Shown piece after piece: positions 1,136 through 34,392 of a stretch of DNA of 64,000 bases. The notes below the pieces were generated by a model. The model made no database searches and was not told the origin of the DNA. It was given only the letters and a program-made list of their open reading frames with translations. The DNA lies in contig CAYGBA010000001.1 in the NCBI GenBank assembly GCA_964347995.1, positions 2,244 through 66,243 of the forward strand, in the 5' to 3' direction. A program made the translations under genes and the position numbers. The DNA is from an uncultured Candidatus Bathyarchaeia archaeon (GTDB lineage: Archaea; Thermoproteota; Bathyarchaeia; Bathyarchaeales; Bathyarchaeaceae). Positions within the stretch are counted from its first letter, which is position 1. The number at the start of each line of letters is the position of its first letter.

Positions 1136-2614
1136 TTATGGTGTGTACTTGAATGGATGCTTGGCCCTGTCCTTGTTCTCAACAATCTCCTCAGCTGTAG
1201 GCCTACCTTCCATAGTTCTCCTGATTGCATGCCTCATAGCCTTATAGTTGTTGACATACACACGATGCCTATTGACGGCGCTAGGATGAACAAAGACATT
1301 TGCGATAATAACAAGATCATCCACAGCACCCTTAGGAATAATACCATCAGCCAAACTGTCAGCGACAGCTTTAGCAACACCCGCCTGAGCAGGACCATAG
1401 ACCATACTAGCCTGCCGCATCCCCCTAATAGTAACCGTCGGCACAATCAAAGTCAGAGGCTTCACGGCGAGATTGGGCTCAAGAATGGCCACTAAAGGCT
1501 CATGTCCAGCAGAGGGAGCCGCCTTAGCCTTGGCGTAGGCCTCACCCACAGGACCATCTTTTCTCCCAATCATTAGGTCAATGTGGGCAACCTCAGACTC
1601 CCCACCGGCCAGAGCCTCACCAACGCGCAGATGGAAGTCACGGACAACCTCAGGTGTAATGCCGATAGCCGTAAAACGCTCTTCTAAGGCTTTCTCCTTG
1701 ATCTTAAACTTGACTGGCTTTGTAGCAATCTTCCCGATCTTCTCGAGCTCTAGGCGAAGCTCCTCACGGGCCTCATAGGTCAGCTCCCCACCCACGCTCA
1801 GAGGCATCCTAGCACGTCCAACCCTTAATCCCATCATATTTAGCGCCTCCTTCGCCCCAACGACACCACTCTTGGCAATAATTCTAGCAATCTTCTGAAT
1901 TCCAAACTGTAGCTCACGAGCTTTCTCAAGATCGCACTTCTGAATCAGATCATAAATCTCAACCCATCTATCTGGGATGACATTTGCGCTCGCCAGAATA
2001 GCCCCGGAAGCTCCAGCTGCCAAAGCCGAGAGAACAACTTCGTCATAGCCACACATGACATTGATCTTTTCTCTAGCCTTCTCCAGAACCGCCAGCATAT
2101 ACTTCAGCTCTCCACTGCTGTCCTTCAAACCAACTATATTAGGAACGTCAGCGAGGTCTTCAACCATCTGCCACGTAAGCCACACACCAGTACACTGAGG
2201 AATATTATACAGAATGACCGGAAGATCAACCCCACTCGCAATAGTATAGAAGTGCTCGTAGATCCCACGATCTGTTGGCTTGAGGTAGAACGGGGTCACC
2301 ACCAAAGCCGCATCCACACCAGAATCCTTCGCATACCTAGTCATCTGTAAAGCCTGATCAGTCCCACTCGCACCAGTACCAGCAACCACAGCCACCCTCC
2401 CATCAACCTCATCCACAACAACATCAATCACCAGCCTCCTCTCATCAACACTAAGATTAACAAACTCCCCAGTCGTACCACATGGAACAAGACCACTCAC
2501 ACCCTGTTCAATACAGCTGTTGACCAGTTTCCGCAACTGCCCCTCATCCACCTCCCTCCCGTCCTTGGTAAAGGGGGTTACCAGCGCAGGCAAGATTCCA
2601 CTAGGCTTGAACAC
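1136..2614 (-). CDS. Fusion protein: DapA/NAL-family pyruvate-dependent class I aldolase (N-terminal, about 300 aa) plus formaldehyde-activating enzyme Fae (C-terminal, about 165 aa)
   Basis: N-terminal motifs are PCGTTGEF, ILYNIPQCTG and VGLKDSSG (Schiff-base Lys context), as in DapA/KDG aldolase/NAL. The C-terminus (VGEALAGGESEVAHIDLMIGRKDGPVG...MVYGPAQAGVAKAVADSLADGIIP...AKHPF) aligns with the Fae sequence I recall (EVAHIDLIIG, FGPAQ.GVA.AV, THPF). It is a single uninterrupted 492-aa ORF. Confidence 0.8.
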   Translation of the reverse strand: MFKPSGILPALVTPFTKDGREVDEGQLRKLVNSCIEQGVSGLVPCGTTGEFVNLSVDERRLVIDVVVDEVDGRVAVVAGTGASGTDQALQMTRYAKDSGVDAALVVTPFYLKPTDRGIYEHFYTIASGVDLPVILYNIPQCTGVWLTWQMVEDLADVPNIVGLKDSSGELKYMLAVLEKAREKINVMCGYDEVVLSALAAGASGAILASANVIPDRWVEIYDLIQKCDLEKARELQFGIQKIARIIAKSGVVGAKEALNMMGLRVGRARMPLSVGGELTYEAREELRLELEKIGKIATKPVKFKIKEKALEERFTAIGITPEVVRDFHLRVGEALAGGESEVAHIDLMIGRKDGPVGEAYAKAKAAPSAGHEPLVAILEPNLAVKPLTLIVPTVTIRGMRQASMVYGPAQAGVAKAVADSLADGIIPKGAVDDLVIIANVFVHPSAVNRHRVYVNNYKAMRHAIRRTMEGRPTAEEIVENKDRAKHPFKYTP

Positions 2615-2696
2615 TACAAACCCTCAACCCAGTTGTCACATGCAACATATTTGTCTGTTTCTGAAGGGAACATCAAAAAGAAGGGAACTGAAACGC

Positions 2697-3644
2697 TTAG
2701 GGCGTCGGAACCGCTAAGTCGGATGGACCTATCTTGGAAAGCTTGGCCTCAGGATAGTACTTCTCTATCAAAGAAACGATAACCTCAGCCATCTTCACCT
2801 TCTCCCTCGCAAGAAACGCCAGATGCTCCGGGCTCACCCAAGGTTTGTAAAGTGCACCAGCACTAGTCCCCGGCTCGATCTTATAGTAGCATGGCGCACA
2901 TATCCTCGTGATCTCTGGAGTTTCCCAAATCCGGTTTATACCACTCCAAGAATCAAATATCACAACATGCACATCGATCGGAATATCAATAGCCGTCCTT
3001 ATAGACGCCAACATAGGAAGCGTCAGATCAGCCAAGGGATTGAAAGTATTGGCCCCAAGCATCTCCAGGACTCTCGCTCCAGCTGCGTTCCCATGACCAG
3101 CAAATATCGAAACCTTGAAGACCACATCCTTCGGCAAATCCCCAGCCTTCCGCATCTCGTTTAAAAGCCACAAAAGACCCTCATCCACAACTAGGAAGCC
3201 TTTGATTCCAAATTCGATGGCTCTCATAATATCGCCAATAACATAGGAGAGATTGTCGGATCCCCGATAGCGCATGCCAGAAAGAGAGCCCTCAGGAGTC
3301 CTGATCTGTGCTCCCAGATCCCAGAGTGACCTCGGGCCTGGTGTGGCGATGACCTCAAGTTTGGCGTCCCTTGCCATCTTTGCAAAGCTCTCTAACTCGT
3401 CGTCTGAGAGATATGTTGCGCCCATCACCATTGAAATCAGCCTGTGAACCCGCACATCTCTCTTGTCCATCTCATCTATCAGGGCCTCCAGCGTCGAAGG
3501 ACGCTCGACACCAGATATCTCTATTCGGTAATGACACTTGTCGGGAAATCTCTTCTTGGATGTTGGCAGTTCATACAAATCTCTGCCAGGTATCCCATGC
3601 TTCTCCATACTTTTCCTAATCTTTTCCAAACGATTCTCCTCCAA
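2697..3644 (-). CDS. Hypothetical protein (315 aa), possibly an alpha/beta-barrel enzyme; function unknown
   Basis: Long ORF with non-repetitive, globular-looking composition. It lies 82 nt upstream of and co-directional with the DapA-Fae gene. A TATA-like box lies about 25 nt upstream of its ATG. I recognised no family motif. Confidence 0.55.
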   Translation of the reverse strand: MEENRLEKIRKSMEKHGIPGRDLYELPTSKKRFPDKCHYRIEISGVERPSTLEALIDEMDKRDVRVHRLISMVMGATYLSDDELESFAKMARDAKLEVIATPGPRSLWDLGAQIRTPEGSLSGMRYRGSDNLSYVIGDIMRAIEFGIKGFLVVDEGLLWLLNEMRKAGDLPKDVVFKVSIFAGHGNAAGARVLEMLGANTFNPLADLTLPMLASIRTAIDIPIDVHVVIFDSWSGINRIWETPEITRICAPCYYKIEPGTSAGALYKPWVSPEHLAFLAREKVKMAEVIVSLIEKYYPEAKLSKIGPSDLAVPTP

Positions 3645-3669: not shown

Positions 3670-3680
3670 TTATATAAAAA
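3670..3680 (-). promoter_or_regulatory. TATA-box-like element (TTTTTATATAA on the minus strand) about 25 nt upstream of the ATG at 3644; suggests a leaderless or near-leaderless mRNA
   Basis: The sequence ttatataaaaa at 3670-3680 lies at the spacing typical of archaeal TATA-to-TSS distance. Confidence 0.35.
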
Positions 3681-3819: not shown

Positions 3820-5454
3820 ATGACTACGAAATCTAGAAAACTAATTCTTCCATTTGCCGCCTCTGCCGAGGATCGCAAAAAAGCCTTTAGTAGAGAAATG
3901 GAGAAGGCAGCAGTTTTCTGCATAGCTCAGATGGAGAGAAAGAAGGGTGGCGGTATCTTAAGGAGGAAAGAGAGAGGAGAGGAGTTACTTTTCACCGCAA
4001 AGTTCTGTTATCCAATGTGGCTGGTTCCTTGGAGGGGGAGAAGTCTATTATTTGATGGTCTCAGCATAACTACGCATAAATTGCGTTATAGCACCCTACC
4101 TGACATCAAAGTATTCACCACCGATATTGAAGTGAGCGCGAAAACGCGTGAAGCCCACTCCGCATTTCTCTCTGATCGCCTCAATTTCTTCAAAAACTTC
4201 ATCGACGAGGAAGAAAAAGTCATCGAAGGGCTGGTCGCAGATGCAGCGCTTGTTCAAGATTTCTCCATCTATCTTAAAGAGGCAAAGGTAATCAGAAAGC
4301 CTCTGGCTGACGTAGTTCTCATATCCCCAGCACTCGACGAACAAGCACTCTCATCCACAATTCAGGACTTGTCAAATCATAGATCCACTATTAAAGACGA
4401 CATTGAAAATCTGTGCGCAGTCATGAAACTATTGAGCAATACTACTGAGAAACACATCAAGACAATGCGTGAAAGAATAGTGCAAAACAAAAAAGAATTT
4501 GACAAAAAGATAACAGATCTGAAATCTTCCCTTAGAGAGAAAGTAAGCCAGATTCAGAGGAGATGCGATAAAGAGATTACTATACGAACCAAAGAGATGG
4601 AAAGCAATCTTCATCGTCTTCATCAAAAGCGAGTTAGGCTGGAAAAGACAGTGCAAAACATGACTGCCAGAGTCGATCGTTATGAAGCAGAGATAAGATC
4701 TTGTAGGCTCAACAAGGATAAGACAGGCGAACTCCTATGGAAGGAAGAGCTTGAGAGAAGCGAAAAGAAACTCTCTGATCTAGAGAGGAGCATCAGGGAT
4801 ATTGACAAAGAAATTGAAGATGCAACCGCAACTAAAAAGAAGGAAATCTCAAAACTGAGGTCTGTATGCGACGACCGAATGGAAGCGGCTATGAAAGGAG
4901 TGAGGGATATTGAAGCCGCCCGTGACGCTAGGATTCTGATGAGTCGGCAGGAGATAGAGTCTTTAGAAGATTCAGCGAAGACAATTGTGGATCAGATCGA
5001 CAATCTAGTCGGGAAGAAGGGAGCTGCATTAGATAAACTTGACACGTTGGGTGTATCAGAGGGGATAAGAAAATATGCTCTCGTGTACGTTCCATTCTAC
5101 CTTCTTTGTTATGAAGAGAAGTTGAAGAATCGATATGCTGTACACCCTCCTTCTGTTGCTGGAAGCATAGGAATTCTGACAAAGTTTAAGGGAGTCTTTG
5201 GAGTTGCAAAGGTGAAATCGATCCTCGAGCCCCGCTCAAAGATCATCGCGGCACTTCTGGACGGACTCCTCCCTTTGATTGCACAGAATCCAGTGTTTGA
5301 AAAAGAAATAGTGGACGCAGGAACTGAAGCTAACATGTTGCGGACAAAAGAACTACGCAGGAAGATAACAGAAGGACTCGAGGCGTTGGAAGAGGAAGGA
5401 TGGTTATCCGAAAGCGAATTCCAAACTTACAGTGAATTCTTGGCGAAGACCTAA
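3820..5454 (+). CDS. Large coiled-coil protein (544 aa), unknown function
   Basis: The central region of about 250 aa is highly charged with heptad-like K/E/R/L-rich sequence (KEFDKKITDLKSSLREKVSQIQRRCDKEI...LERSEKKLSDLERSIRDIDKEIED). It is flanked by globular N- and C-terminal regions. No NTPase motif was seen. Confidence 0.6.
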   Translation: MTTKSRKLILPFAASAEDRKKAFSREMEKAAVFCIAQMERKKGGGILRRKERGEELLFTAKFCYPMWLVPWRGRSLLFDGLSITTHKLRYSTLPDIKVFTTDIEVSAKTREAHSAFLSDRLNFFKNFIDEEEKVIEGLVADAALVQDFSIYLKEAKVIRKPLADVVLISPALDEQALSSTIQDLSNHRSTIKDDIENLCAVMKLLSNTTEKHIKTMRERIVQNKKEFDKKITDLKSSLREKVSQIQRRCDKEITIRTKEMESNLHRLHQKRVRLEKTVQNMTARVDRYEAEIRSCRLNKDKTGELLWKEELERSEKKLSDLERSIRDIDKEIEDATATKKKEISKLRSVCDDRMEAAMKGVRDIEAARDARILMSRQEIESLEDSAKTIVDQIDNLVGKKGAALDKLDTLGVSEGIRKYALVYVPFYLLCYEEKLKNRYAVHPPSVAGSIGILTKFKGVFGVAKVKSILEPRSKIIAALLDGLLPLIAQNPVFEKEIVDAGTEANMLRTKELRRKITEGLEALEEEGWLSESEFQTYSEFLAKT

Positions 5455-5534: not shown

Positions 5535-7211
5535 TTAGCCACCCATCTTCTTGCAGACGTTAGAAATAGCCAAGATAATCTGTGGCGGCGTGAAGATGCT
5601 GAAAACCTTCGCGTATCGAGGAGATCCCGCCTTCTTAACCGTTCCTCTTTTGCCCCCAGCCTCCAGATATCCTTCGATGAATTCTTTTGCAAGAAGCTTC
5701 GCGGATTTCGCTGAAGAGACTGGAGAGGCGTAGTGCCCGGAATAGTAGAGGAACTCAGTTATGTCCCAGGCTTGATTTCCGTCTCTTGAAGCCTGTTCGA
5801 GATCGACGAAAAAGGCTATTCCATCTTTCGTGACTACAATGTTCTCCGGCTTGCAGTCTCCAAGACTAACGCCAAGTTTGTGAGCTTGGGCAATTTTCGT
5901 CCCTACATCTCTCACTAAGGCAATATCTGAGGCTCTTTTCTTGGATGACATGATCTGCTTCACAACTCTAACTAACGTCTCTCCATCAATGAAATCCTCG
6001 AAGATCAATCGTTCCTTATGGCTGACGTGAAGAATCTTCGGAACAGCAAAACCACGACTACGTAGAAATTGGTTTATTGCGTATTCTCTTTCCAGCCTGG
6101 ATCGACCGAGCACCGTAAACGTCTTTGTACCAAGCGTCCACAGCGCCAATGGAAACCATTTGAAGCCAAACCAGTCCTCAAACTTCTTCACCACGACCTT
6201 CCGTTTTTTACTGTTTTCCCACAGTGTGAGCAGATATACGGTGTTCAAAACTCCACCCATATGTTCAACTTTCATATCTAAAACATCTTCGTTCAACATC
6301 ATTTTCTCCGCAAAAACCTCCACGGTGGTTCTGTCTGAAAACGGAACCAGTCCGTTATGCGTCGGCATCAACAAGTATTTATCAGGATCCTCAAGCCGAA
6401 AAACCAGCCGTTCAGTTTCAACGTCTCGATAAGATCCTCTGAACAGCTTCTGGTCTTGAACGAGAAGATTGGTCAATTTTGGCAATACGTTAAGAATGTG
6501 GAGAAGCGCCGTTTTTTGAATGGATTTGAGAAAGATGGGAATTCGAATTTTCTGGCTTCTAATCGCGTTAATCAGTTTCTGTGTAACTTTGATGTATCCA
6601 TTGGACAAAGTAATCCAGTTCTCCTTCGCCAGCTGATCGATGGCTTCAAGGTAGCCCCTCATAATTGCGTTGATATTTTTTCTTCTGAGATCGTCCCTAA
6701 ACATGTTAAGGAAGCTGTACGTGATGGGCGGGAACAGTTTGGCTTTACGCCTTATAGTTTCATGAATGAAATACTCGGGTTTTATGAGGAGCTCTTGAGA
6801 TAAATCGGGAGACTCTAAAACAAGATTCTCCAAGAGCTCCCAGACAATGCGCCTTTTCACCTTTACTTCATGACGCCACAGATATTCCTTGTTAATCAAA
6901 GGAACATACGGGAACGTTACCTTTTCAGCGACAAACTCACCCAACCATCCTTGCACCACATCTCTTTCAAAGATTCTTCGATCAACAGCCAAGATGAAAG
7001 TGTCCATTCCATTTGAAGGCTTAATGTGGTATCTCAATCCAATTTTGTAACGCTCTAGGACCAAAAAGACATGGGCATCACCCTTTTCGTCCGCGTAGCC
7101 GTACACCCGCGGACCATGTAGACCGGCTGCAACAACCTCGCAAGAGCCAGCAGCTTGCATGCAGAAGTCTAATGCGTTTTCTCTGAGATTTTCACTCGAA
7201 AGCTGAGTCAT
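5535..7211 (-). CDS. Two-domain protein: N-terminal nucleotidyltransferase-like or uncharacterised domain plus C-terminal Bud32/RIO/LPS-kinase-like protein kinase domain
   Basis: C-terminal kinase-like motifs are LIFEDFIDGETL, AHKLGVSLGDCKPENIVV (catalytic-loop D-x-K-x-x-N) and FFVDLEQA (DFG-equivalent D). The N-terminus (AAGLHGPRVYGYADEKGDAHVFLVLE) loosely resembles a Pol-beta-type NTase core. Confidence 0.6.
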   Translation of the reverse strand: MTQLSSENLRENALDFCMQAAGSCEVVAAGLHGPRVYGYADEKGDAHVFLVLERYKIGLRYHIKPSNGMDTFILAVDRRIFERDVVQGWLGEFVAEKVTFPYVPLINKEYLWRHEVKVKRRIVWELLENLVLESPDLSQELLIKPEYFIHETIRRKAKLFPPITYSFLNMFRDDLRRKNINAIMRGYLEAIDQLAKENWITLSNGYIKVTQKLINAIRSQKIRIPIFLKSIQKTALLHILNVLPKLTNLLVQDQKLFRGSYRDVETERLVFRLEDPDKYLLMPTHNGLVPFSDRTTVEVFAEKMMLNEDVLDMKVEHMGGVLNTVYLLTLWENSKKRKVVVKKFEDWFGFKWFPLALWTLGTKTFTVLGRSRLEREYAINQFLRSRGFAVPKILHVSHKERLIFEDFIDGETLVRVVKQIMSSKKRASDIALVRDVGTKIAQAHKLGVSLGDCKPENIVVTKDGIAFFVDLEQASRDGNQAWDITEFLYYSGHYASPVSSAKSAKLLAKEFIEGYLEAGGKRGTVKKAGSPRYAKVFSIFTPPQIILAISNVCKKMGG

Positions 7212-10319: not shown

Positions 10320-11540
10320 ATGTCCTTTAAGAGAAGATTACTCATGTTGCCAGGCCCCAGTGAGCCTTATCCAGAGGTTCTAGAGAAGCTTCAACATCAA
10401 GTTCTCCCACACTATGGACCTGACTGGAAAGAAGCGTTCAGAAAAGTGCGCGAAGATCTGAAGAAGATTTTCCAAACAAAGGGAGAAATCATACTATATC
10501 CTGGCTCGGGCGAGTCAGCAACCCACATGGTCGCCGCAAACATGGTTAAGCCTGGAGACAAGGTGATAACCCTCACGAATGGAATCTTCGGAGAATACAT
10601 CAACACGGCTGTGGAAGCTTTCGGTGGAAATCCCATACTAGTATGGGAGAGTTTTGGGAAGGCCATAGACCCGGAGAAAGTGAGGAAAGTTGCGATAGAG
10701 GAGAAAGACGCAAAGGCCATCTTCGTGGTGCACGTCGAGACCTCGTCTGGAGTGCAGAACCCGATTAGGGAAATCGGTGAAATCGCCGAAGAAACTGGCA
10801 AAACCTACATAGTCGACGCGATAGCGTCGCTAGGAGGTTCTGAGTTGAGGATGGATGAGTGGAACATAGACATCTGCCTGGGCTACGCTAGTAAAGCCTT
10901 AGGTTCCATACATGTTCTTTCTCCGATAGCTGTAAGCATGGAAATCTGGGAGAGCATCGTGGAGAAGCCTCGATACATTAAGCCCTACTTCGTAGATTTC
11001 TCAGCGTGGAAGTACAGGAGCTGGGGTGGCGGTCACCCAGTCACCATGCCGACGATGAACATTCTAGCCCTCAGCAAGGCTGTGAAGATAGCATTAAGAG
11101 AAGGTTTGCAGAGCCGTTTCAGAAGACACTATGTCGCTGGGGAGGCGGTGAGGGCGGGAGTTAGGGCTATGGGCTTAAGCGTCCTCCCAGAAGAGGATGA
11201 TGCGGCTGGAACGGTCACAGCTGTAAAAGTCCCCATGGGCACCGAAGACAAGATAAGGAGCCTGATGATGGAGAAGTTCAACATAATGATTGGGGGAAGT
11301 TTAGGAGACTTGGCGAAGGGTAAGGAGACTTGCGGCAAAGGAGAGCTGATAAGGATTGGACACATGGGGCTGGTAGCCTCACCAGAATACATAGTCCCAA
11401 CCCTAGCAGCTCTAGAAGAAGTCCTGCCAAAAATAGGTTTCCACCCAAAAGGGTCCGGAGTGGAAGCCGCGCTGGAAGTATTCAAGCAACAACCAAAAGA
11501 GTGGATAAATGGAATCATCGCACGACTCATGGAAAGATAA
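10320..11540 (+). CDS. Class V PLP-dependent aminotransferase (serine-pyruvate/alanine-glyoxylate aminotransferase-like)
   Basis: Size is 406 aa. Supporting segments are GSGESATHMVAANMVKPGDKV, VHVETSSGVQNP, IVDAIASLGG and GYASKALGS (PLP lysine context). Confidence 0.7.
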   Translation: MSFKRRLLMLPGPSEPYPEVLEKLQHQVLPHYGPDWKEAFRKVREDLKKIFQTKGEIILYPGSGESATHMVAANMVKPGDKVITLTNGIFGEYINTAVEAFGGNPILVWESFGKAIDPEKVRKVAIEEKDAKAIFVVHVETSSGVQNPIREIGEIAEETGKTYIVDAIASLGGSELRMDEWNIDICLGYASKALGSIHVLSPIAVSMEIWESIVEKPRYIKPYFVDFSAWKYRSWGGGHPVTMPTMNILALSKAVKIALREGLQSRFRRHYVAGEAVRAGVRAMGLSVLPEEDDAAGTVTAVKVPMGTEDKIRSLMMEKFNIMIGGSLGDLAKGKETCGKGELIRIGHMGLVASPEYIVPTLAALEEVLPKIGFHPKGSGVEAALEVFKQQPKEWINGIIARLMER

Positions 11541-11587
11541 AACTAGACCAAGGCATAACCATTCTTTGCGGATGACCAAATGGACGC

Positions 11588-12481
11588 CTAGCAAACCTCA
11601 ATGACTTTCAGTATTTCTTTTATCTCTTTCTTCTCGTCTTCCTCCAGCGGTGCTGTCGGTTTTCGGGGATAACCACCCAGTAAACCCTTCATGGTCAATG
11701 CTGCCTTTATCGCAGAGAGTTGATTATGCCTTCTGATGAGAACCTCATTTATGTAAGAAATACATCCTTGTAATTTGCTTGAGTATTCAAACTTTCCTTC
11801 TTTGAAGTTCTCATACAAGGCGCTACATTGTTTGGGAGCTACGTTTGCCACCGCAATTAAGGCGCCTTTTCCTCCAAGCATTAACGTTGAGAGAGCAACG
11901 TCGGCTGTACCGGCTAGCACCGACACTTTGTCACCCACTAATCTGATGAGCTCTGCTATTTGACTTAGGTTTCCGCTGCTATCTTTTATTCCAATAACAT
12001 TTTCGTATTCAGAAACAAGTTTGTAAACTACGCTTGGGTCCAGAGAGAATCCTGTAAATTTTGGAACGTTATAGATGACAATTGGTAAGTCAACTGCTTC
12101 TAGTAAAGCGCTGTAATGGTCATGAATCTCTTTGCTTGAATGCTTATAATAGAATGGTGTTACAACAAGAGCCGCATCCACCCCTACACTCATTGCATCT
12201 TCAGTTAATTGAATCGTTTCCCGCGTGCTTATAGCTCCTGTTCCAGCGATTACAGGGACCTTGCCATCGGCTTCTTCTACAACAACTTCAATAACTCTCT
12301 TCCTTTCTTCTCTCAGGAGATAGGGGGCCTCACCGTTGCTTCCGCAAGGAACAAGTCCAGAAAGTCCTCCTTCAACCCAAAATTGTACACATTGCCGCAG
12401 CGCATTCTCGTTTATTTCTCCGTTTCGTCTAAAGGGAGTTATATGCGGTACAAAGACTCCTTCTAATATTGGCTTGGCCAT
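11588..12481 (-). CDS. DapA-family class I aldolase (4-hydroxy-tetrahydrodipicolinate synthase or KDG-aldolase-like paralog)
   Basis: Size is 297 aa. Motifs are PCGSNGEAPYL, VIYNVPKFTG and IGIKDSSG. This is the second DapA-family member in the window. Confidence 0.75.
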   Translation of the reverse strand: MAKPILEGVFVPHITPFRRNGEINENALRQCVQFWVEGGLSGLVPCGSNGEAPYLLREERKRVIEVVVEEADGKVPVIAGTGAISTRETIQLTEDAMSVGVDAALVVTPFYYKHSSKEIHDHYSALLEAVDLPIVIYNVPKFTGFSLDPSVVYKLVSEYENVIGIKDSSGNLSQIAELIRLVGDKVSVLAGTADVALSTLMLGGKGALIAVANVAPKQCSALYENFKEGKFEYSSKLQGCISYINEVLIRRHNQLSAIKAALTMKGLLGGYPRKPTAPLEEDEKKEIKEILKVIEVC

Positions 12482-12673
12482 GCACCTCTCGACCTTAGTT
12501 CTGATATGTCACAAGATCTTAAATTTTTATGGAATGCCCGATCGTGAGGGAGCATCGTCTATAGCTTGGTCTAGAAGATGGACTAAGATGACATGGGTGC
12601 AAGCTCACGCTCGAGGATGTTTAAGATTCTGCTCGCATGACGTACATTCATATCTTTCCAGCTGATTGCAAGC

Positions 12674-12681
12674 TTTATAAA
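12674..12681 (+). promoter_or_regulatory. TATA box (TTTATAAA) 30 nt upstream of the amidohydrolase ATG
   Basis: The sequence agctttataaacaac lies at a spacing consistent with a very short leader. Confidence 0.35.
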
Positions 12682-12711
12682 CAACTTTAGCCGCCCAACC
12701 TAATCTACGAG

Positions 12712-13989
12712 ATGGATAACATGCCCGTTAGAAAGAAGGCGATTAAGGCGATTGAAGGAAGATTAATTGACGGGACCGGAAGCACTCCAACTAGAAAAGC
12801 TATCGTTGTAATAGAAAAAGAAAAAATCAAAGAAGTGGGCAAGGCAAGCGAAATCAAGATTCCAGATGGTGCAGAGCTGATAGATGCTTCAGGCAAGACT
12901 GTCATGCCAGGGTTAATAGATTCTCACATGCATTTCATGGGCTTGGTGAGTGACAAATTTGTTGAGGAAAAAATTGTAAGACCCATAGAACTTGGAATCA
13001 TAAAAGCGGTTTTTGACGCCAGAGACCTCCTAGAAGCTGGCTTCACCACCGTAAAGGACTGCGGAAGCAGGGGAGGCCTCTTTCTAAAGAAAGCGATCAA
13101 AGAAGAATGGTCAAAGGGAATTATTAAGGCTCCAAGAGTGTTAGCAGCTGGCCGCGCTCTCAGCCAGACCTTCGGTCACGGAGACGCACACTATCTTCCA
13201 ATAGAATACGCCAGACAGCTCAATCCATGCATATGCGACGGAGTTCCAGAATGCCTTAAAGCAGCTCGTCTAGCTCTCAGGGAAGGCGCAGACTTCATAA
13301 AAGTGATGACCAGTGGAGGGGTAATGTCTCAACGAGATCGACCAGAATATACGCAGTTCACGCTGGAAGAAATCAGGGCTATTGTTCGGGAGGCAGAGAA
13401 GGTGGGAACATTCGTAACTGCACATTGCCAAGGAACCGAGGCTATAAAGCTCTCCATCAAAGGTGGAATAAGAACAATCGACCACGCCTTCTATCCAGAT
13501 GAAGAAGCGATAGAAATGGCAATCAAGAAGAACGTCGCTTTCGTTCCAACACTCTCAATAAACCAACAAATAGTAAAAGGCGGGGTAGAAGCAGGTTATC
13601 CTCCATGGGCAGTGGAAAAGGCGGAGGAAGCTTGGGAAGAAGTTTGCAGGAATATCGAGAAGTCACATAGAGCTGGCGTACCCATCTGTGCAGCCACCGA
13701 CTTCTGTGGTTCTCCACTTCTGAAATTTGGCAAAAACGCTATGGAACTTGAGCTACTTGTCAAGAAATGTCATTTCAAGCCCCTTGAAGCTATTGTAGCT
13801 GCTACCAAAAACGCTGCTGAATTCGCATGCAACTTAGGAGGCAAGATTGGAACAATAGAGGAGGGGAAATTTGCCGACATCATTGTTGTGGAAGGAGACC
13901 CACTGAAAGACATAACGATTCTACAAGACTTAGAAAAGATAAAGATGGTAATGAGAAAAGGGGGAATAGAAGTCAATCGAGGATTATAA
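12712..13989 (+). CDS. Metal-dependent amidohydrolase superfamily protein
   Basis: PGLIDSHMHF (HxH metal motif), a later TAHCQG and IDHAF histidines, and a C-terminal ATDF aspartate context. Size is 425 aa. Confidence 0.75.
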   Translation: MDNMPVRKKAIKAIEGRLIDGTGSTPTRKAIVVIEKEKIKEVGKASEIKIPDGAELIDASGKTVMPGLIDSHMHFMGLVSDKFVEEKIVRPIELGIIKAVFDARDLLEAGFTTVKDCGSRGGLFLKKAIKEEWSKGIIKAPRVLAAGRALSQTFGHGDAHYLPIEYARQLNPCICDGVPECLKAARLALREGADFIKVMTSGGVMSQRDRPEYTQFTLEEIRAIVREAEKVGTFVTAHCQGTEAIKLSIKGGIRTIDHAFYPDEEAIEMAIKKNVAFVPTLSINQQIVKGGVEAGYPPWAVEKAEEAWEEVCRNIEKSHRAGVPICAATDFCGSPLLKFGKNAMELELLVKKCHFKPLEAIVAATKNAAEFACNLGGKIGTIEEGKFADIIVVEGDPLKDITILQDLEKIKMVMRKGGIEVNRGL

Positions 13990-20266: not shown

Positions 20267-20764
20267 CTACATGTATCCTAGACCGCGTAGTTTCTGCATC
20301 ATGTAAGCCTTCTCTTTGTCCTGGGCTCTGCCTGCGCGTTCCGAGATTTTTGTGATTTTTAGCTCTTGGATGATCTGGTCTATGGTTCGCGCGTCTGATG
20401 AGATGGGTACGGTACAGGGTTGGCATCCTAGGCTTCTGTAGCGTTTCCCGTTTTTTGCGAAGTAGAGGGGGTTTATGGGGAGGTTTTCTTCTTTGACGTA
20501 TTGCCAGGCTTCGAGTTCTGTCCAGTGGAGGATGGGGTGGACTCTCATGTGTGAGTAGTCTTCTGCGGGTTTTACGTATATGTCCCACATTTCTGCGGGT
20601 TGGTTTTTGTAGTCCCATCTGAAGTCTTCGTCTCTGGGGGAGAAGATTCTTTCTTTGACTCTTATGCCGTGTTCGTCTCTTCTTATGGAGACGAGGAGCG
20701 CGTCGAACTGTTCTTTTTCTATTGGTTCTTTAATGAGTTGCCCTGCGTGTTTAATCCCGCCCAT
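20267..20764 (-). CDS. cysD: CysD-like protein lacking the N-terminal PP-loop half (truncated sulfate adenylyltransferase subunit 2; possibly a pseudogene)
   Basis: The 165 aa align with roughly the last 190 residues of E. coli CysD as I recall it (ARRDEE..R.KERI.S.RD...RWD.KNQ.PE.W..Y; W.ELD.WQYI; R.LGC.P.T; TSERQGR..D...MELKKRQGYF). No SGGKDS-type PP-loop is present, and all three upstream frames carry stops. Confidence 0.65.
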   Translation of the reverse strand: MGGIKHAGQLIKEPIEKEQFDALLVSIRRDEHGIRVKERIFSPRDEDFRWDYKNQPAEMWDIYVKPAEDYSHMRVHPILHWTELEAWQYVKEENLPINPLYFAKNGKRYRSLGCQPCTVPISSDARTIDQIIQELKITKISERAGRAQDKEKAYMMQKLRGLGYM

Positions 20765-21224
20765 AGGCTTGTCAGAATGGAAATTGATTTTGGTTTCTCA
20801 AATGTATGGTTGGCGGGGTTGCACAAAATGGATAATTCGCCGATTTCTGACGTTGAGTGTTTTGACAGCTTTGTTGAGCTCTTTTGGATGAACAGTTCCG
20901 AATTCGTCCGATCAGCCGAAGTCCGACACATCGGCAATTTTTCTAAAATATTCGCGTGCATTGTAACTCAGAGCTTGGATAAATCTAATTGCCAAACTAT
21001 TGATCCTAGGGATGACAAAAATCCATGTTAAATCATACCAATCTGGTAATACCTTTGAAAGCCATTCAACGGTCGCCGGAAGCGGAGCTTATTACTCCTT
21101 CTAATTTTCAATCTAGATGTTTTCCGTATTGCCGTTCAAAATAGTCGTAACGGCAAGAGTCCAATACAATTAAGGCATCCCAGTCCCATTCTTTTATCTT
21201 AGTTATTTGAAATTTTTCGGGTTA
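20765..21224 (-). pseudogene. Decayed gene remnant; contains an AP-superfamily N-terminal-like fragment
   Basis: My minus-strand translation of 21221-21111 gives PEKFQITKIKEWDWDALIVLDSCRYDYFERQYGKHLD*. The LDS.RYDY motif is the N-terminal metal-binding motif of the NPP/AP family. Downstream frames give short protein-like stretches (FIQALSYNAREYFRKIADVSDFG*, SDEFGTVHPKELNKAVKTLNVRNRRIIHF) broken by stops. The 560-bp gap has no intact ORF. Confidence 0.35.
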
Positions 21225-21327
21225 CAAGTATCTTCTGAAAGGGAAAATAGCGTTTCTGATTCTAGACTCAACAGAAGTCCTCAAATCAAGCATTCTACTA
21301 ACCCCTCGTCAGCTGTCACATAATATC

Positions 21328-22083
21328 CTAAATGGTTTTTGTTGTTATCCCTCGTTCTTTCTGATTAAACAAGGGTAGTCTAGATAAGGCTAGAAGCGTT
21401 CCGAGAAAGGCGAGGATAGAGCCGAAATTGCGGGATAATCCCACATATTTTGTCATGTGGACAAGTCTTTGTAAACAATACTTCACATAGCTTTGTTTCT
21501 CTTCTGATGCAATTCTGTCTTTGATTGCGAGTGCATGAAACTTCTTAACGATTTCCATGACACGGTATAACCTGATATCTACTCCACATACATCATCGCA
21601 ATAGTATATGCGCCATCCCTCGCCTTCCATGCGCCTAACCCAGTTTCGGTCACAGCCCGGCTCATTTAAATACTCACCCACTTCTCTCCAAGCCTTCATA
21701 TTGAAAAGCATTACAAACCCAGCGTGTCCTTTAAGAAAAGAATTCTCGTCATATACAACTCTTCCAGCTACTGCACCGACTTTTCCACTCATCAGCTTAA
21801 GCATTTTAGTCAATGCATCTTTCTTGAGAATAATATCCGCGTCGGATTTCAAAACATAATCATATTCTTTCAAAGCTTTCATTCCAACGTTCACTGCTCT
21901 ATAGCCAGGTCTTACGCCAGACACTAGGACACATGGAATGTCTAAGTCACATATCGATTGGTAAGCAAGCTTCGTTGTCGCTTCTCCAAGGGTCGCGATG
22001 AATCCCGCAATCCTTTCTTTCACACGGTTTTGGTCTGTTCGACGTTCAAAATTGCCTACTCGACGATGATTATGATTCAACAT
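21328..22083 (-). CDS. GT2-like glycosyltransferase with an atypical or short N-terminus
   Basis: RAVNVGMKALKEYDYVLKSDADIIL (DxD-type motif) and a C-terminal TM segment. Confidence 0.5.
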   Translation of the reverse strand: MLNHNHRRVGNFERRTDQNRVKERIAGFIATLGEATTKLAYQSICDLDIPCVLVSGVRPGYRAVNVGMKALKEYDYVLKSDADIILKKDALTKMLKLMSGKVGAVAGRVVYDENSFLKGHAGFVMLFNMKAWREVGEYLNEPGCDRNWVRRMEGEGWRIYYCDDVCGVDIRLYRVMEIVKKFHALAIKDRIASEEKQSYVKYCLQRLVHMTKYVGLSRNFGSILAFLGTLLALSRLPLFNQKERGITTKTI

Positions 22084-22242
22084 GAAAATCGACCCAGTCT
22101 TAAATCAACATAATTGCCGCTACCTCGATAATATTGAGATTAAGGGCATTGAAATTCCTTTCGAAAAAATGTGAAATTTCCGGGGCATTCACGTAGCATT
22201 TAAGTTTCCAAAAGTTCAATAATCTTTCTTAGGCGACTCAAC

Positions 22243-23319
22243 GTGCGAGTTCTAATGCCCCTATGGTCTGTAAATCTCTTAGACCAAGGTTTTGTCGCCC
22301 CACTGACTAGAAGCATATCAAAACAATTAGGATCACAACCAGAGCTCCTAAACATAGCTCATCTCAGAGGAGTACCAAAAAAAGAATGGAAGCAGCACTT
22401 CACCTTTCACAAACTCAACTTGCCCTACAAGTTCATCAAAAGCAAGATGGCACGGCTCTATCTCTCAAGACGAGAAATCTACAACCAAATAGGAAACGTC
22501 GATGTAGAAGTCATCTTCACCCTCAGCGACCCATGGGCACAGGAATTCTCCAGATACTGCTCCAGAAAAATGGGCATCCCCTACGTGGTAAGGTTAAGAG
22601 GAAATGCAAAAGAAGTCAGAAAGGTCACCCATGTCAGTTGGATAAAACAAAAAATAATGGACTACCTAGATGCAAGAAGCCTGAAGGAAGCAAACTTGGT
22701 CGTACCAAACTCAAACGACCTGGCCAAAAAAGCCGAGGAATGGGGGGTAGAAGAAGATAAGATCACAAGCCCTGTCTACAACGGCGTTGACGCCCACGTG
22801 TTCAAACCAATGAACATTGAAAGGTCAAGCAAATTCACCGTCGCCTACGCCGGCAGGATAAGCCCAGAAAAAAGGGTCACTCATCTACTTAAGATTGCAG
22901 AGTCTCTCCAAAACGTATATTTCCTGATAGCTGGAAAGAAACAGATGTCCATGTCCTTCCCAAGCACCATAAACTATCTGGGAGGGCTACCATTCTCTGA
23001 GATGCCAAAATTCTACAACAAAGCAGACCTCATAATCCTCCTCAGCGCCACCGAAGGCTTCCCAAACATCGTCCTAGAGGCATACGCATGCGGAAAACCA
23101 GTCCTAGTAACAAAAGAAGCCTTTCCTAAAGAGTTGAAGCTCTTTGGCTCTATAGCAGAACTAAACGAATTCGAGTCAGAAATAAAAGCCCTGATGAAAT
23201 CCGACCTTGACAATCTGGGTCGCCAAGCAAGGGCTTATGTCAAGAAGCATTATACATGGGAAGAGTTCGGCAAATCTATAGTCAAACACTTTGAGAGGTT
23301 GACAACGCAACGTACCTAA
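22243..23319 (+). CDS. GT4 (GT-B, group 1) glycosyltransferase
   Basis: SATEGFPNIVLEAYACGKPVLVT is the characteristic EX7E-region motif. Size is 358 aa. Confidence 0.8.
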   Translation: MRVLMPLWSVNLLDQGFVAPLTRSISKQLGSQPELLNIAHLRGVPKKEWKQHFTFHKLNLPYKFIKSKMARLYLSRREIYNQIGNVDVEVIFTLSDPWAQEFSRYCSRKMGIPYVVRLRGNAKEVRKVTHVSWIKQKIMDYLDARSLKEANLVVPNSNDLAKKAEEWGVEEDKITSPVYNGVDAHVFKPMNIERSSKFTVAYAGRISPEKRVTHLLKIAESLQNVYFLIAGKKQMSMSFPSTINYLGGLPFSEMPKFYNKADLIILLSATEGFPNIVLEAYACGKPVLVTKEAFPKELKLFGSIAELNEFESEIKALMKSDLDNLGRQARAYVKKHYTWEEFGKSIVKHFERLTTQRT

Positions 23320-23332
23320 ACTTAACGCAAAA

Positions 23333-24244
23333 CTAGCTTCTTTTCAGAACACCCCTCATCCAGTCGTAAGTCATCTCTAAGCCTTCTTCAATCGATGTCT
23401 TGGGACTCCAATTCAAGATCCTCTTCGCCTTCGTTATATCTATGTGTTCTTTTTTCACATTCCCCGGCCTGTCAGGAATAAACTCCAAGGCAACCTTCTC
23501 ATTCGGATTCGCCATCCGCCAACACAGCTCGGCCAACTCCAATGTAGATACCGACTCTTCTCCAGCTATGTTAACAACCTCATCTTTCACTTCCATCGCC
23601 TTAACGGTCGCATCCACCAGATCCTCAACAAATATGTAAGACCGCGTATGAGCCCCATCACCATGAGCCTGCAGAGTCTCATTTCTTATCGCTCTCGAAA
23701 GAAAGATGAAAGGCGCCAACGCCTCACGCATCCTAGGTCCATAAACAGTGGAGTACCGCAAAATGTTACAATCTAAACCATAAAGTTGGCGATAGCCCTT
23801 AACCACGTACTCACCCGCAAGCTTCGTCGACCCATAAATCTCAGTAGGTCTCAAAAGAGCATCCTCGTGAGTCGGAAAAACATCAGTATCACCATACACG
23901 CAACAAGTCGAAACATACGTCAAAAAGCAATCAAACCGCCTGCACATCTCAGCAACTACTCCAGTTCCAAAAACATTCGCTTTAACCGTTTCGATGCTGT
24001 GTTGCCTTGCATAATTCACATCTGCAACAGCCCCAACGTGAAAGCAATAACCAGGCTCACGCTTCGAGAAAAGCGCCCCCAGTTCTTGCTGGCTTGTGAA
24101 ATCAGTTTCGTGCGAATGATAGTTTCTATTCGCGAAATCGCTAGATTTCAGGTCACATCCAACAACTGTATGCCCCAATTCCAATAGTTTTTCAACAAGA
24201 TACCGACCAATAAAACCACTGCTTCCAGTAACTAAGACCTTCAT
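23333..24244 (-). CDS. NAD-dependent sugar-nucleotide epimerase/dehydratase (extended SDR)
   Basis: MKVLVTGSSGFIGRYL (GxxGxxG) and YGSTKLAGE (YxxxK). Confidence 0.8.
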   Translation of the reverse strand: MKVLVTGSSGFIGRYLVEKLLELGHTVVGCDLKSSDFANRNYHSHETDFTSQQELGALFSKREPGYCFHVGAVADVNYARQHSIETVKANVFGTGVVAEMCRRFDCFLTYVSTCCVYGDTDVFPTHEDALLRPTEIYGSTKLAGEYVVKGYRQLYGLDCNILRYSTVYGPRMREALAPFIFLSRAIRNETLQAHGDGAHTRSYIFVEDLVDATVKAMEVKDEVVNIAGEESVSTLELAELCWRMANPNEKVALEFIPDRPGNVKKEHIDITKAKRILNWSPKTSIEEGLEMTYDWMRGVLKRS

Positions 24245-24424
24245 CGCTTATTCACCTAAACCTTGAAATTTATCCTATTCGCCCAAAACATTTCAGTCAA
24301 GACTAAAAAAGCTTGCCTAATGATAACTCGCAAGCCCGTGCAGTTAGAAGACTGTTTATTAGCATCCCTAGCCTAGAGAATCGAACAGGTGACAAATCTG
24401 CTTGATGTCTAGGGCGAGATCAAA

Positions 24425-25249: not shown

Positions 25250-25297
25250 TACTACGACCGCAACATATAAGATAAGCATTGTGAAAAGACAATTCCC

Positions 25298-26248: not shown

Positions 26249-26252
26249 AAAG

Positions 26253-27419: not shown

Positions 27420-27528
27420 CAATTTTTGAGGAGGACTCATCATTACCCCAAAAATATATGTAAGCAAGTACGCTGAGATAGGAAAAAATGTTGAAATTGC
27501 ATATGGAGCAATAGTCGAAAAGAGTGCT

Positions 27529-28227: not shown

Positions 28228-28290
28228 CCAATAGACATAATGCACATAGCAAGAATAGGGTAAAGGGCTATGAACTCTCTCCCATATCAT

Positions 28291-29391: not shown

Positions 29392-29435
29392 GAGTTTGTT
29401 GCCGTGTGGAAGCGGCAGACTTCATCCATCCTGTT

Positions 29436-30152: not shown

Positions 30153-30351
30153 TTTCGTATCCGCAAGCCTCCTTGTTTCACCACTCCTGTTCTTAATGCA
30201 TATATTTACTACATCTCAATAGTAAATATATAAGGTTTACTCCTTTTGAGTGGTAAAAATTTTTCGTCAAACCAAACCAGCCGAAATTCCTACACTGGAA
30301 AGAAAGAACGCTAAGTAAGAAATGAATTTGAGGCTGTGCTCAGAAAAAACG

Positions 30352-31194: not shown

Positions 31195-31346
31195 GAGTTA
31201 ACTACTCTCCTATAGATAATTTGAACAACCTGCTTTTAAATCCTTTACATTGTGTGTTTCAACTTACGCGAAGGAAAAAACTGTACACAGAAAAGGTTAT
31301 AAATGAGAATAATTAACTTCAACCAAGTAGTAAAATCGGTGTTCAT

Positions 31347-32513: not shown

Positions 32514-32624
32514 ACCAAGGAAATGGAGAAGAACGGACAGCGCATTAACGACTAAGGAGAAAATCATGCCAAGTTTCATCTTGGAACCAATGGAAAATTT
32601 CTTATCAATAAAATTTCGGTTGCA

Positions 32625-34371: not shown

Positions 34372-34392
34372 GGCTATCCTCTTTTTGAGTGT

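Follow-up and report, generated by a model that had tools for sequence, protein, structure and literature searches.

Formaldehyde-activating enzyme (Fae, EC 4.2.1.147) catalyzes the reaction HCHO + H4MPT <-> methylene-H4MPT and is a pentamer with active sites at its subunit interfaces. Enzymes of the DapA family usually form tetramers, with a donor specificity largely restricted to pyruvate; among them, YagE/YjhH are 2-keto-3-deoxy-pentonate aldolases. To the best of our knowledge, no N-acetylneuraminate lyase (NanA), KDG/KDPG aldolase, YagE/YjhH, or HOGA1 aldolase is fused to Fae. Ketopantoate hydroxymethyltransferase (PanB, KPHMT) and class II aldolases for 4-hydroxy-2-oxobutanoate are metal-dependent and use tetrahydrofolate or free formaldehyde, and the latter enzymes have been used in the synthetic homoserine cycle. 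Among the closest described systems is the Fae-Hps protein of methanogens (Hps, 3-hexulose-6-phosphate synthase), in which, according to PMC5241800 (citing Goenrich et al. 2005), Fae is fused to a formaldehyde-releasing aldolase and capture of the formaldehyde is proposed.

The window analyzed here, a stretch of 64,000 nucleotides from an uncultured Bathyarchaeia archaeon, encodes a different Fae fusion (Table 1). As in Fae-Hps, Fae is covalently joined to a TIM-barrel aldolase, and both proteins are found in H4MPT-using anaerobic archaea. The proposed logic is also alike, in that formaldehyde derived from an aldol reaction would be captured at once as methylene-H4MPT. Unlike Fae-Hps, the fusion contains a DapA-family class I Schiff-base 2-oxo-acid aldolase in place of the OMP-decarboxylase-like Hps, its domains are arranged in the opposite order, Fae being C-terminal, and an extra conserved partner gene lies beside the fusion. 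When scored against the Fae-Hps model NF009833, the Fae half matched alone (positions 2-161 of 392, 185.9 bits versus a cut-off of 274), and a Pfam scan found no Hps domain in the fusion. Our best explanation, to which we assign a probability of roughly 45%, is a two-site enzyme in which a class I 2-oxo-acid aldolase and a working Fae would tie a formaldehyde aldol reaction to the H4MPT pool.

Table 1. Features of the fusion locus and of the Mer gene (window coordinates)
Feature	Position	Strand	Remarks
Fusion gene	1136..2614	minus	492 aa; starts with GTG, ends with TAA; aldolase, linker and Fae in a single chain
DHDPS/DapA-family (beta/alpha)8 class I aldolase domain, aa 4-290	1745..2605	minus	PF00701
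C141 codon, E. coli DapA Arg138 position	2192..2194	minus	YNIPQCTG versus YNVPSRTG in DapA
K164 codon, Schiff-base lysine of GLKDSSG	2123..2125	minus	Aligned to E. coli K161
Conserved inter-domain linker, aa 291-330	1625..1744	minus	~40 aa, ELEKIG...FTAIGITPEVVRDF; between both Pfam envelopes
Fae domain, aa 331-488	1151..1624	minus	PF08714 and TIGR03126
Fae-domain residues E333, H344, D346, N381, G407-P408, Q410, F441, H443, N456, H486-P487-F488	1151..1624	minus	
Spacer between w315 and fusion, 82 bp	2615..2696	minus	Purine-rich GGTTGAGGG just before GTG; no clear TATA box
Partner gene w315, ~310-315 aa	2697..3644	minus	Directly upstream of fusion; uncharacterized
TATA-like TTTATATA	3671..3678	minus	Upstream of w315; sequence reading
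Mer, F420-dependent methylene-H4MPT reductase	43119..44135	minus	TIGR03555, 451.7 bits versus cut-off 348.7

The first-pass annotation had described a single 492-aa ORF without interruption, joining a class I aldolase to Fae. This description holds, with the addition that the gene lies on the minus strand, which had been left unstated. A Pfam scan of the fusion protein placed DHDPS at aa 4-290 (E 2.6e-81) and Fae at aa 331-488 (E 6.4e-62, 208.7 bits, profile positions 1-158 of 159), and the NCBIfam models TIGR00674 dapA (242.6 bits, cut-off 206.15) and TIGR03126 fae (216.8 bits, cut-off 118.05) were likewise passed, so that both domains were found far above curated cut-offs. The motifs from which the domains had been recognized carry the corresponding residues: GTTGEF, YNIP, and GLKDSSG in the N-terminal part contain T47/T48, Y136, and K164, respectively, and EVAHIDLMIG in the C-terminal part contains H344/D346, with YGPAQAGVAKAV and the C-terminal HPF also present. 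The junction, anticipated at about 1630-1720, lies close to that estimate in a linker (nt 1625-1744) that is alignable among fusions of different phyla. A missed stop or a frameshift that artificially merged two genes is effectively refuted. The identical 492-aa protein is present on three independent contigs/assemblies, the linker is conserved, and hundreds of orthologues match it in length and architecture, some of them on chromosome-scale contigs. The same 492-aa architecture was found in >120 clusters at 90% identity (76-99% identical) and, with greater divergence, in ~16 clusters at 50% identity (37-55% identical).

A search for this architecture revealed that it is widespread across archaeal and some bacterial lineages. 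The archaeal lineages are Bathyarchaeia, several Asgard lineages, Korarchaeota-like archaea, Thermoplasmata, and Methanofastidiosia, and the bacterial ones are Anaerolineae/Chloroflexota; occurrence in the latter was counted against the two-site enzyme. Complete Bathyarchaeia genomes with the fusion include CP070679.1, CP070649.1, CP070765.1, and OY970176.1. Many other lineages carry tandem fusion pairs (types A and B) with Fae domains that have degenerated complementarily. A genome scan built on type A fusions gave full-length matches in at least ~45 species genomes among the best 80 of 588 matches; its patterns are specific to type A, and thus loci having a type B copy alone are missed. The first-pass annotation had also asked whether the fusion might prove common and already have an unrelated function assigned. 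It is indeed common, bacteria included, but the function assigned to it is an automated name that is probably wrong (see below). Within the literature library searched, no paper describing a Fae-DHDPS/DapA fusion was found. The Bathyarchaeia literature that was found mentions fae only as widespread, and the search returned no usable literature on ketopantoate hydroxymethyltransferase in methanogens or on lysine biosynthesis in Bathyarchaeia.

To map the residues of the aldolase domain, we used E. coli DapA, the sequence of which was checked as identical to 1dhp, as the reference. In the alignment, T47, T48, Y110, Y136, and K164 of the fusion correspond to E. coli T44, T45, Y107, Y133, and K161, and the pyruvate-site residues are the same as in DapA. 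Across 28 single-copy fusions from Bathyarchaeia, Lokiarchaeota, and relatives (E. coli numbering), T45, Y133, and K161 are present in every sequence, Y107 in 27, and T44 in 26. The same set has invariant residues of its own, namely F48, W145, and D188-E189. The domain therefore resembles DapA/DHDPS (EC 4.3.3.7) in its fold, its Schiff-base lysine, its Thr-Tyr-Tyr proton relay, and its TIGR00674 score. Since this equivalog cut-off is exceeded, its closest relatives of known structure are DHDPS enzymes (foremost M. jannaschii DHDPS 2yxg, ~45% identity), and the source annotations read "4-hydroxy-tetrahydrodipicolinate synthase", the N-terminal domain could be taken for the organism's genuine DapA, serving lysine biosynthesis, with the Fae fusion being incidental. 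We rejected this reading as very improbable. In DapA, Arg138 binds the carboxylate of aspartate semialdehyde and is essential for that binding. The DHDPS enzymes of E. coli and M. jannaschii both keep this arginine, which is replaced by Cys141 here, and the position is occupied by C, V, A, T, or L in the family, with Arg in 0/72 fusions (46 type A and 26 type B). Because the aspartate semialdehyde determinant is lost, the N-terminal domain is probably not a true DapA of the lysine pathway, and the database name is probably mistaken.

Further differences from DapA/DHDPS are the fusion-family substitutions S48F, N108L, P145W, D187Y/W/H, and N248G, the joining to Fae, and a lack of DAP-pathway context at the loci searched. 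A tblastn search with E. coli DapB found no match in the window or in ~90 fetched loci, a result that excludes adjacency only. The TIGR00674 score carries less weight in this group since another DapA-family gene of the window (11588..12481) passes the model although it is without Arg138, which indicates that the model over-calls. In addition, the fusion has been stably maintained in different phyla, and its partner gene is not a DAP gene. We also considered that the bulky F48, W145, and Y/W/H187 shrink the aldehyde pocket; this idea was rejected because sequence alone is its basis, and position 48 falls in the allosteric/dimer-interface region of DapA. The fusion scored below every curated cut-off of the NCBIfam NanA, HpaI-like, KdgD, and archaeal KD(P)G aldolase models (TIGR02313, 216.7 versus 396.7; NF003164, 188.9 versus 281; TIGR00683, 177.2 versus 382; NF040954, 128.4 versus 390; TIGR03249, 118.2 versus 374).

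In the Fae domain, 52/58 canonical positions, defined as those ≥90% conserved in 20 free-standing Fae proteins, are identical. The retained positions include H344, D346, N381, G407-P408, Q410, H443, N456, and H486-P487, and the domain aligns with M. extorquens Fae 1y5y. It is thus a catalytically plausible Fae. In duplicated fusions, each copy holds a complementary half of the Fae residue set and one full set is always kept, which is consistent with an active site at the subunit interface. The tandem copies would therefore provide a clean natural case of an interface active site split between paralogues. The combination of a tetrameric DapA-family enzyme and a pentameric Fae in one chain was counted against the two-site enzyme.

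The tandem copies also bear on an alternative that we regard as unlikely, namely that Fae is the sole physiological activity and that the DapA-like domain is an oligomerization scaffold or a 2-oxo-acid-binding regulatory module. The protein would then be a housekeeping formaldehyde trap, for example, for formaldehyde from the reverse ribulose-monophosphate pathway. In one lineage (L005/L006), both tandem copies are without the Schiff-base lysine (ALADSSG and GILDATG) yet the Fae residue sets persist, which suggests that the aldolase chemistry is not indispensable everywhere. This alternative also draws on the frequent Y107F substitution in type B copies, on gene neighborhoods that are mainly housekeeping, and, weakly, on the lack of a free-standing Fae from Bathyarchaeia/Lokiarchaeota among the best 80 of 588 matches. 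It is opposed by the single-copy fusions, in which the catalytic residues of the aldolase domain are kept in 26-28 of 28 sequences over 45-55% sequence divergence. The family-specific invariant residues of this domain are hard to square with a mere scaffold, and the conserved, enzyme-like partner gene indicates a pathway. The conservation in the 28 single-copy fusions, together with that of the canonical Fae positions, argues that the aldolase and Fae residues are both under selection, and this was counted in favor of the two-site enzyme.

The partner gene is a recurrent feature of the fusion loci. Homologues of w315 (62-66% identity) lie directly upstream of the fusions in Methanofastidiosia, Anaerolineae, and Chloroflexota loci, and the same placement was found in further contigs, one of them named Bathyarchaeia, with homologues of 77-78% identity. 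Overall, either w315 or a second gene, n427 (~427 aa), adjoins the fusion in >30 loci from archaeal and bacterial phyla. This conservation points to a dedicated pathway. In the window, w315 and the fusion are probably co-transcribed, given the purine-rich stretch before the GTG and the absence of a clear TATA box in the spacer between them; the upstream TATA-like element is a possible promoter of the unit. Neither w315 nor n427 has a Pfam, NCBIfam, or PDB sequence match, permissive thresholds included, and the two are remote homologues of each other (hhalign probability 62%, E 7.6e-5, 280 columns). The AlphaFold2 model of w315 (mean pLDDT 62.8) has alternating beta/alpha elements and a TIM-barrel-like predicted fold, for which Foldseek returned generic TIM barrels only (TM ~0.4), with KPHMT among the weak fold matches. 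The n427 model (pLDDT 46.3) was too poor for a fold search. The low confidence of the former model and the unusable state of the latter were counted against the two-site enzyme. The association with the fusion gives these two uncharacterized protein families a functional anchor.

Most fusion neighborhoods are housekeeping, with conservation confined to the partner gene. The Mer gene, which the first-pass annotation had placed at 43119-44114, was borne out with a slightly larger extent (Table 1), and since Mer is encoded in the window, the organism appears to use H4MPT, the co-substrate of Fae. The SHMT gene proposed at 41892..43076 (plus strand) has a Pfam SHMT match and falls just below the NCBIfam cut-off (322 versus 335). 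In three Bathyarchaeia loci, the fusion adjoins a UxaA/GarD-type sugar-acid dehydratase and a LarA-like 2-hydroxy-acid racemase/epimerase. These neighbors hint at a logic in which a 2-keto-3-deoxy acid is converted to pyruvate and an aldehyde, which is the logic of other DapA-family pyruvate aldolases. Like NanA, KDG/KDPG aldolase, YagE/YjhH, and HOGA1, the fusion would likely carry out a retro-aldol reaction of a 4-hydroxy-2-oxo acid to pyruvate and an aldehyde; unlike theirs, the aldehyde proposed for the fusion is a C1 compound. A link to methionine salvage was rejected because the recurrent IF-2B/Aldolase_II/arginase neighbors in Thermoplasmata-type loci look like shared synteny.

The same context raises the alternative that the aldolase is active with chemistry other than 4-hydroxy-2-oxobutanoate cleavage, which we consider quite improbable. 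One option is that the enzyme cleaves 4-hydroxy-2-oxoglutarate or a longer 2-keto-3-deoxy sugar acid. UxaA/GarD-type dehydratases are known for C6 sugar acids, and their presence beside the fusion in the three loci would fit this option. Another is that it moves a hydroxymethyl group from methylene-H4MPT onto a different 2-oxo acid, in which case the fusion would be an H4MPT-dependent functional analogue of PanB. A tblastn search with E. coli PanB gave no match in the window or in any fetched locus, which excludes adjacency only, and the weak Foldseek hits of w315 include KPHMT. For Bathyarchaeota and Korarchaeota, the archaeal PoK/PPS steps of CoA synthesis are also reported as missing (PMC6650551), which bears on their route to pantothenate. 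Against such chemistry, formaldehyde as the aldehyde is the simplest explanation of a fusion to an intact Fae, and the fold matches of the partner are to generic TIM barrels. Moreover, the pyruvate site is unchanged and DapA-family enzymes favor pyruvate, which makes a branched donor such as 2-oxoisovalerate less likely. The likeness to PanB and to class II aldolases for 4-hydroxy-2-oxobutanoate would be one of mechanism alone, with a formaldehyde unit passing between a pterin carrier, or free HCHO, and C3 of a 2-oxo acid. The sequences are unrelated, and the fusion combines a class I aldolase with an H4MPT-specific Fae.

Returning to the two-site enzyme, the N-terminal Schiff-base aldolase would act on a 2-oxo acid, with pyruvate the most likely donor, and the C-terminal Fae would interconvert formaldehyde and methylene-H4MPT. 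An aldol reaction with formaldehyde as the presumed aldehyde would thereby be linked to the H4MPT pool, by analogy to Fae-Hps. The simplest candidate reaction is 4-hydroxy-2-oxobutanoate <-> pyruvate + HCHO, and a plausible best reading of the fusion is 4-hydroxy-2-oxobutanoate <-> pyruvate + HCHO <-> methylene-H4MPT. Free formaldehyde would be captured as, or delivered from, methylene-H4MPT, the direction of flux being presumptive, as is the coupling between the two sites. Methylene-H4MPT would then be used by Mer and the Wood-Ljungdahl pathway, and the w315 product (elsewhere that of n427) would probably make or consume the 4-hydroxy-2-oxo acid. It is from the domain combination and the Fae-Hps precedent that we infer formaldehyde as the aldehyde, 4-hydroxy-2-oxobutanoate as the 2-oxo acid, and channeling. 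The aldolase dimer/tetramer and Fae pentamer interfaces might together build a large assembly that keeps formaldehyde off the cytoplasm. It should be noted that nothing in the sequence marks formaldehyde as the aldol partner, which was counted against this explanation together with the housekeeping neighborhoods, the lysine loss in L005/L006, and Y107F in type B copies.

In anoxic sediments, Bathyarchaeia and Asgard archaea rank among the most abundant organisms, and their C1 metabolism has been reconstructed almost wholly from annotation. The gene described here is currently read either as "DapA", and thus lysine synthesis, or as "fae", and thus detoxification, so that an aldolase that is probably not DapA and its partner are overlooked. 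The fusion and w315/n427 could constitute an undescribed H4MPT-linked pathway that interconverts a C4 4-hydroxy-2-oxo acid with pyruvate and methylene-H4MPT, a tentative proposal that we hold to be possible but on balance doubtful. If true, such a pathway would be widespread in sediment archaea and some Chloroflexota. It could represent a natural pyruvate hydroxymethyltransferase/4-hydroxy-2-oxobutanoate aldolase route by which the Wood-Ljungdahl pathway is supplied from homoserine-type compounds or C4 sugar acids; otherwise, it could be a naturally occurring equivalent of the synthetic homoserine cycle. The formaldehyde-coupling hypothesis is directly testable with one recombinant protein. 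To our knowledge, only engineered formaldehyde-assimilation pathways have made use of the 4-hydroxy-2-oxobutanoate aldol reaction to date; should the aldolase form or split this compound, the fusion would connect pyruvate with the methylene-H4MPT pool in a natural system.

The first-pass annotation had described a single uninterrupted 492-aa open reading frame joining a DapA-family aldolase to formaldehyde-activating enzyme (Fae). This was borne out: the gene begins with GTG, and every motif quoted for its product was located in it. Pfam placed a DHDPS-family domain at residues 4-290 (E 2.6e-81) and a Fae domain at residues 331-488 (E 6.4e-62), and the NCBIfam models TIGR00674 (dapA) and TIGR03126 (fae) scored 242.6 bits (cut-off 206.15) and 216.8 bits (cut-off 118.05), respectively. 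The Fae-Hps model NF009833 was matched through the Fae half only. Among solved structures, the N-terminal part is closest to Methanocaldococcus jannaschii DHDPS (2yxg) and the C-terminal part to Methylorubrum extorquens Fae (1y5y). The identical protein occurs in three independent assemblies, more than 120 clusters at 90% identity have the 492-aa architecture (76-99% identical to the fusion; all named members Bathyarchaeota/Bathyarchaeia), and, when 50%-identity representatives were searched exhaustively, ∼16 more full-length fusion clusters emerged at 37-55% identity. This recurrence rules out a frameshift artefact, and the chance that the fusion is an artefact of any kind is negligible.

Full-length fusions were found in ∼45 species genomes, as judged from the names given by the sources and from scanning a single genome for each GTDB species (best 80 of 588 matches; patterns specific to type A, the form in the window). 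The archaeal hosts are Bathyarchaeia, Promethearchaeota (Lokiarchaeota), Borrarchaeum, Thorarchaeota, Sifarchaeum, Odinarchaeota (partial), Methanofastidiosia, Thermoplasmata, Methanomassiliicoccales, Undinarchaeales, and Korarchaeota-like MAGs; the bacterial hosts are about a dozen Anaerolineae/Chloroflexota MAGs and one Spirochaetota MAG. The fusion pair was seen in bacterial loci L037-L053 (Anaerolineae/Chloroflexota) and L046 (Spirochaetota). The architecture, not known to the first-pass annotation as characterised, is widespread and not rare. Its source label is "4-hydroxy-tetrahydrodipicolinate synthase" or, occasionally, "formaldehyde-activating enzyme"; the former name is probably a misannotation. 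Among the papers that could be searched, none mentions the aldolase-Fae combination, and the Bathyarchaeia papers remark only that fae is widespread (PMC10321748, PMC11631310).

To characterize the aldolase domain, 46 type A and 26 type B fusion proteins were aligned with M. jannaschii DHDPS and E. coli DapA (sequence verified as identical to PDB 1dhp). Residues T47, T48, Y110, Y136, and K164 of the window protein correspond to T44, T45, Y107, Y133, and K161 of E. coli DapA, which confirms the Schiff-base lysine proposed for this part. In DapA, Arg138 binds the carboxylate of aspartate semialdehyde. The window protein has Cys141 at this position, with unambiguous flanks (YNIPQCTG versus YNVPSRTG), and none of the 72 fusion proteins has Arg, the residue being C, V, A, T, or L. 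Near-invariant residues of the fusion family are F48, L108, W145 (type A), W/H/Y187, D188-E189, N208, and G248. Although the dapA model is passed, a genuine DapA is very unlikely: Arg138 is missing throughout, and tblastn found no dapB in the window or ∼90 fetched loci. The window has another DapA-family gene, a free-standing one (297 aa; GSNGEA, YNVPKFTG, GIKDSSG), whose product also exceeds the TIGR00674 cut-off, yet lacks Arg138; therefore, the model over-calls in this group. Flanked by genes for a class V aminotransferase and an Xaa-Pro dipeptidase-like amidohydrolase, it may belong to a distinct cluster (10320..13989) for a 4-hydroxy-2-oxo-acid aldolase, perhaps of the HOGA/hydroxyproline type. 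A free-standing relative of the fusion's aldolase domain, P0133 (53% identical, YNIPQVTG), has a class V aminotransferase on one side and a PALP enzyme on the other, which hints at amino-acid or 2-oxo-acid metabolism. We conclude that the fusion's N-terminal domain belongs to the DapA family and has the catalytic equipment of a class I aldolase, but is not DapA in the strict sense. An aldol chemistry other than 4-hydroxy-2-oxobutanoate cleavage, including PanB-like hydroxymethyl transfer, is rather improbable in our estimate. The tblastn searches of the window and the ∼90 loci also found no panB.

The Fae domain was compared with 20 free-standing Fae proteins (Archaeoglobi, methanogens, Planctomycetes) and that of M. 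extorquens. Of the 58 positions conserved to at least 90%, the window protein matches 52, including the AHIDL His/Asp (H344, D346), N381, G407-P408, Q410, F441, H443, N456, and the C-terminal HPF, and the domain is active-looking and conserved. A few substitutions characterize all fusions: K70T, F83Y, I119V, and K138R (1y5y alignment numbering). In type B, the Fae-like domain is degenerate, lacking the AHIDL His and the HPF tail, and Arg usually replaces W145. Tandem pairs with type B immediately ahead of type A occur in Anaerolineae/Chloroflexota, Thorarchaeota, Thermoplasmata, and Spirochaetota, and also in Korarchaeota-like and some other Bathyarchaeia-like contigs. Paired type A proteins keep the canonical Fae residues E10, H21, D23, F118, H120, N133, and H163-P164 and lose L51, P57-N58, K62, A79, G84-P85, and Q87, while type B shows the reverse; in short, type A carries the His/Asp/C-terminal set and type B the EPNL/YGPAQ set. 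Both sets are retained where type A occurs as a single copy, in Bathyarchaeia and Lokiarchaeota. The Fae active site sits between neighboring subunits, and the complementary losses are those expected of an A + B heteromer with a composite interface site, which suggests that tandem pairs form obligate heteromers of this kind. The complementary sets also show that, everywhere, selection maintains a complete Fae site. A single lineage (L005/L006; GCA_003560875.1, PWJQ01000035.1) has the Schiff-base Lys replaced in both copies (ALADSSG and GILDATG), and one copy also lacks T44/T45 and Y133, while the Fae sets persist; this aldolase is dead and the protein retained. The lineage favors a reading in which Fae is the sole relevant activity and the DapA-like domain a scaffold or sensor, which we consider unlikely overall.

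When the genes around 44 fusion loci were clustered, two adjacent genes recurred. One, n427 (∼427 aa), occurs beside the fusion in 26 loci, with 60-77% identity, spanning Bathyarchaeia, where it is divergent, and Lokiarchaeota, Undinarchaeales, and Anaerolineae, where it is co-directional. The other, w315, is represented in the window; in Methanofastidiosia, Anaerolineae, and Chloroflexota, the gene immediately 5' of the fusion is a homolog sharing 62-66% identity, and homologs of 77-78% identity occupy this place in further contigs, one of which its source names Bathyarchaeia. Both are abundant "hypothetical proteins" in databases, with no Pfam, NCBIfam, or PDB sequence match. A profile-profile comparison (probability 62%, E 7.6e-5, 280 columns; common motifs such as FK[VI]S[IV]F.G) suggests that they are remote homologs. 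Beta and alpha elements alternate in the w315 model (pLDDT 62.8), whose only matches are generic TIM barrels (class II aldolases, xylose-isomerase-like, KPHMT; TM ∼0.4); the n427 model was unusable for fold comparison. The 5' spacer of the fusion gene contains a purine-rich GGTTGAGGG but no clear TATA box, and TTTATATA is found upstream of w315, from which we infer a probable two-gene operon.

In three Bathyarchaeia loci, the fusion adjoins instead a split UxaA/GarD-type sugar-acid dehydratase (SAF + GD_AH) and a LarA-like racemase/epimerase. Remaining neighbors are housekeeping genes that differ from locus to locus. A Lys/Glu-rich, possibly coiled-coil (by eye) 544-aa ORF without a family match is divergent from the w315-fusion pair, with a homolog only in same-strain contig L001 among the fetched loci. 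A Kdo/APH-like kinase gene recurs near the unit in Bathyarchaeia contigs; in L095, it immediately precedes the unit in the same orientation. Synteny alone may account for this. As annotated initially, the window encodes Mer (TIGR03555, 451.7 bits) and an SHMT-family protein, and it carries SepRS, AglB, and HdrA/MvhD-like genes; it is part of a Bathyarchaeia genome. Other content spans 20267..39000, 48981..50588, and 56119..62885.

Coordinates of the fusion gene, its relatives and neighbors, and other window features
Feature	Locus	Position	Strand	Remark
Aldolase-Fae fusion	window	1136..2614	-	
w315	window	2697..3644	-	82 bp upstream of fusion, same strand
544-aa ORF	window	3820..5454		
Kdo/APH-like kinase	window	5535..7211		
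Kdo/APH-like kinase	L095	4222-5916		
Kdo/APH-like kinase	L096	1-611		
Class V aminotransferase	window	10320..11540		
Second DapA-family gene	window	11588..12481	-	
Xaa-Pro dipeptidase-like amidohydrolase	window	12712..13989		
ATP sulfurylase + PAPS-reductase genes	window	28291..30152		
AglB/STT3	window	36626..38806		in large glycosylation cluster
O-phosphoseryl-tRNA synthetase	window	48981..50588		
Carbamoyl-phosphate synthase large subunit	window	52172..55468		in lowest-GC stretch, 52001..56000 (0.408 vs ∼0.45-0.51 around)
HdrA/MvhD-like fusion	window	59008..61428		
2-oxoacid:ferredoxin oxidoreductase subunits	window			
n427	L003, L007, L011-L031, L039, L051, L057			e.g. L019 8556-9839
Dehydratase/epimerase	L022	3105-4579		one Bathyarchaeia subclade
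Dehydratase/epimerase	L033	4850-7580		same subclade
Dehydratase/epimerase	L052	6144-8874		same subclade
P0133 and neighbors	L091	136-2530		
Tandem B/A	L005 (L005/L006)	8544-11449		Schiff-base Lys replaced
Tandem B/A	L009	8528-11479		
Tandem B/A	L037, L039, L044, L045, L047, L051, L058, L092, L094, L095			

Taken together, a conserved class I 2-oxo-acid aldolase, active-looking but distinct from DapA, a conserved active-looking Fae, a fusion stable over deep divergence, a conserved enzyme-like partner, and an H4MPT-using host would be most economically explained by an aldol reaction involving formaldehyde, coupled to methylene-H4MPT by analogy with Fae-Hps (PMC5241800). Beyond the anatomy this reading is inferred, and we give it a probability of roughly 45%. 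Of the coupling first proposed for this protein, the catalytic residues of both domains and the Mer gene stand, while the substrate and the coupling itself are conjectural. The simplest substrate would be the C4 acid 4-hydroxy-2-oxobutanoate, formally 2-keto-3-deoxy-tetronate. The dehydratase/epimerase neighbors of one clade fit a route from sugar acid through 2-keto-3-deoxy acid to pyruvate and aldehyde. Like Fae-Hps, the fusion combines Fae with an aldolase; here, however, the aldolase is of another family and a new partner family is added. The name it bears in public databases is probably a misannotation.
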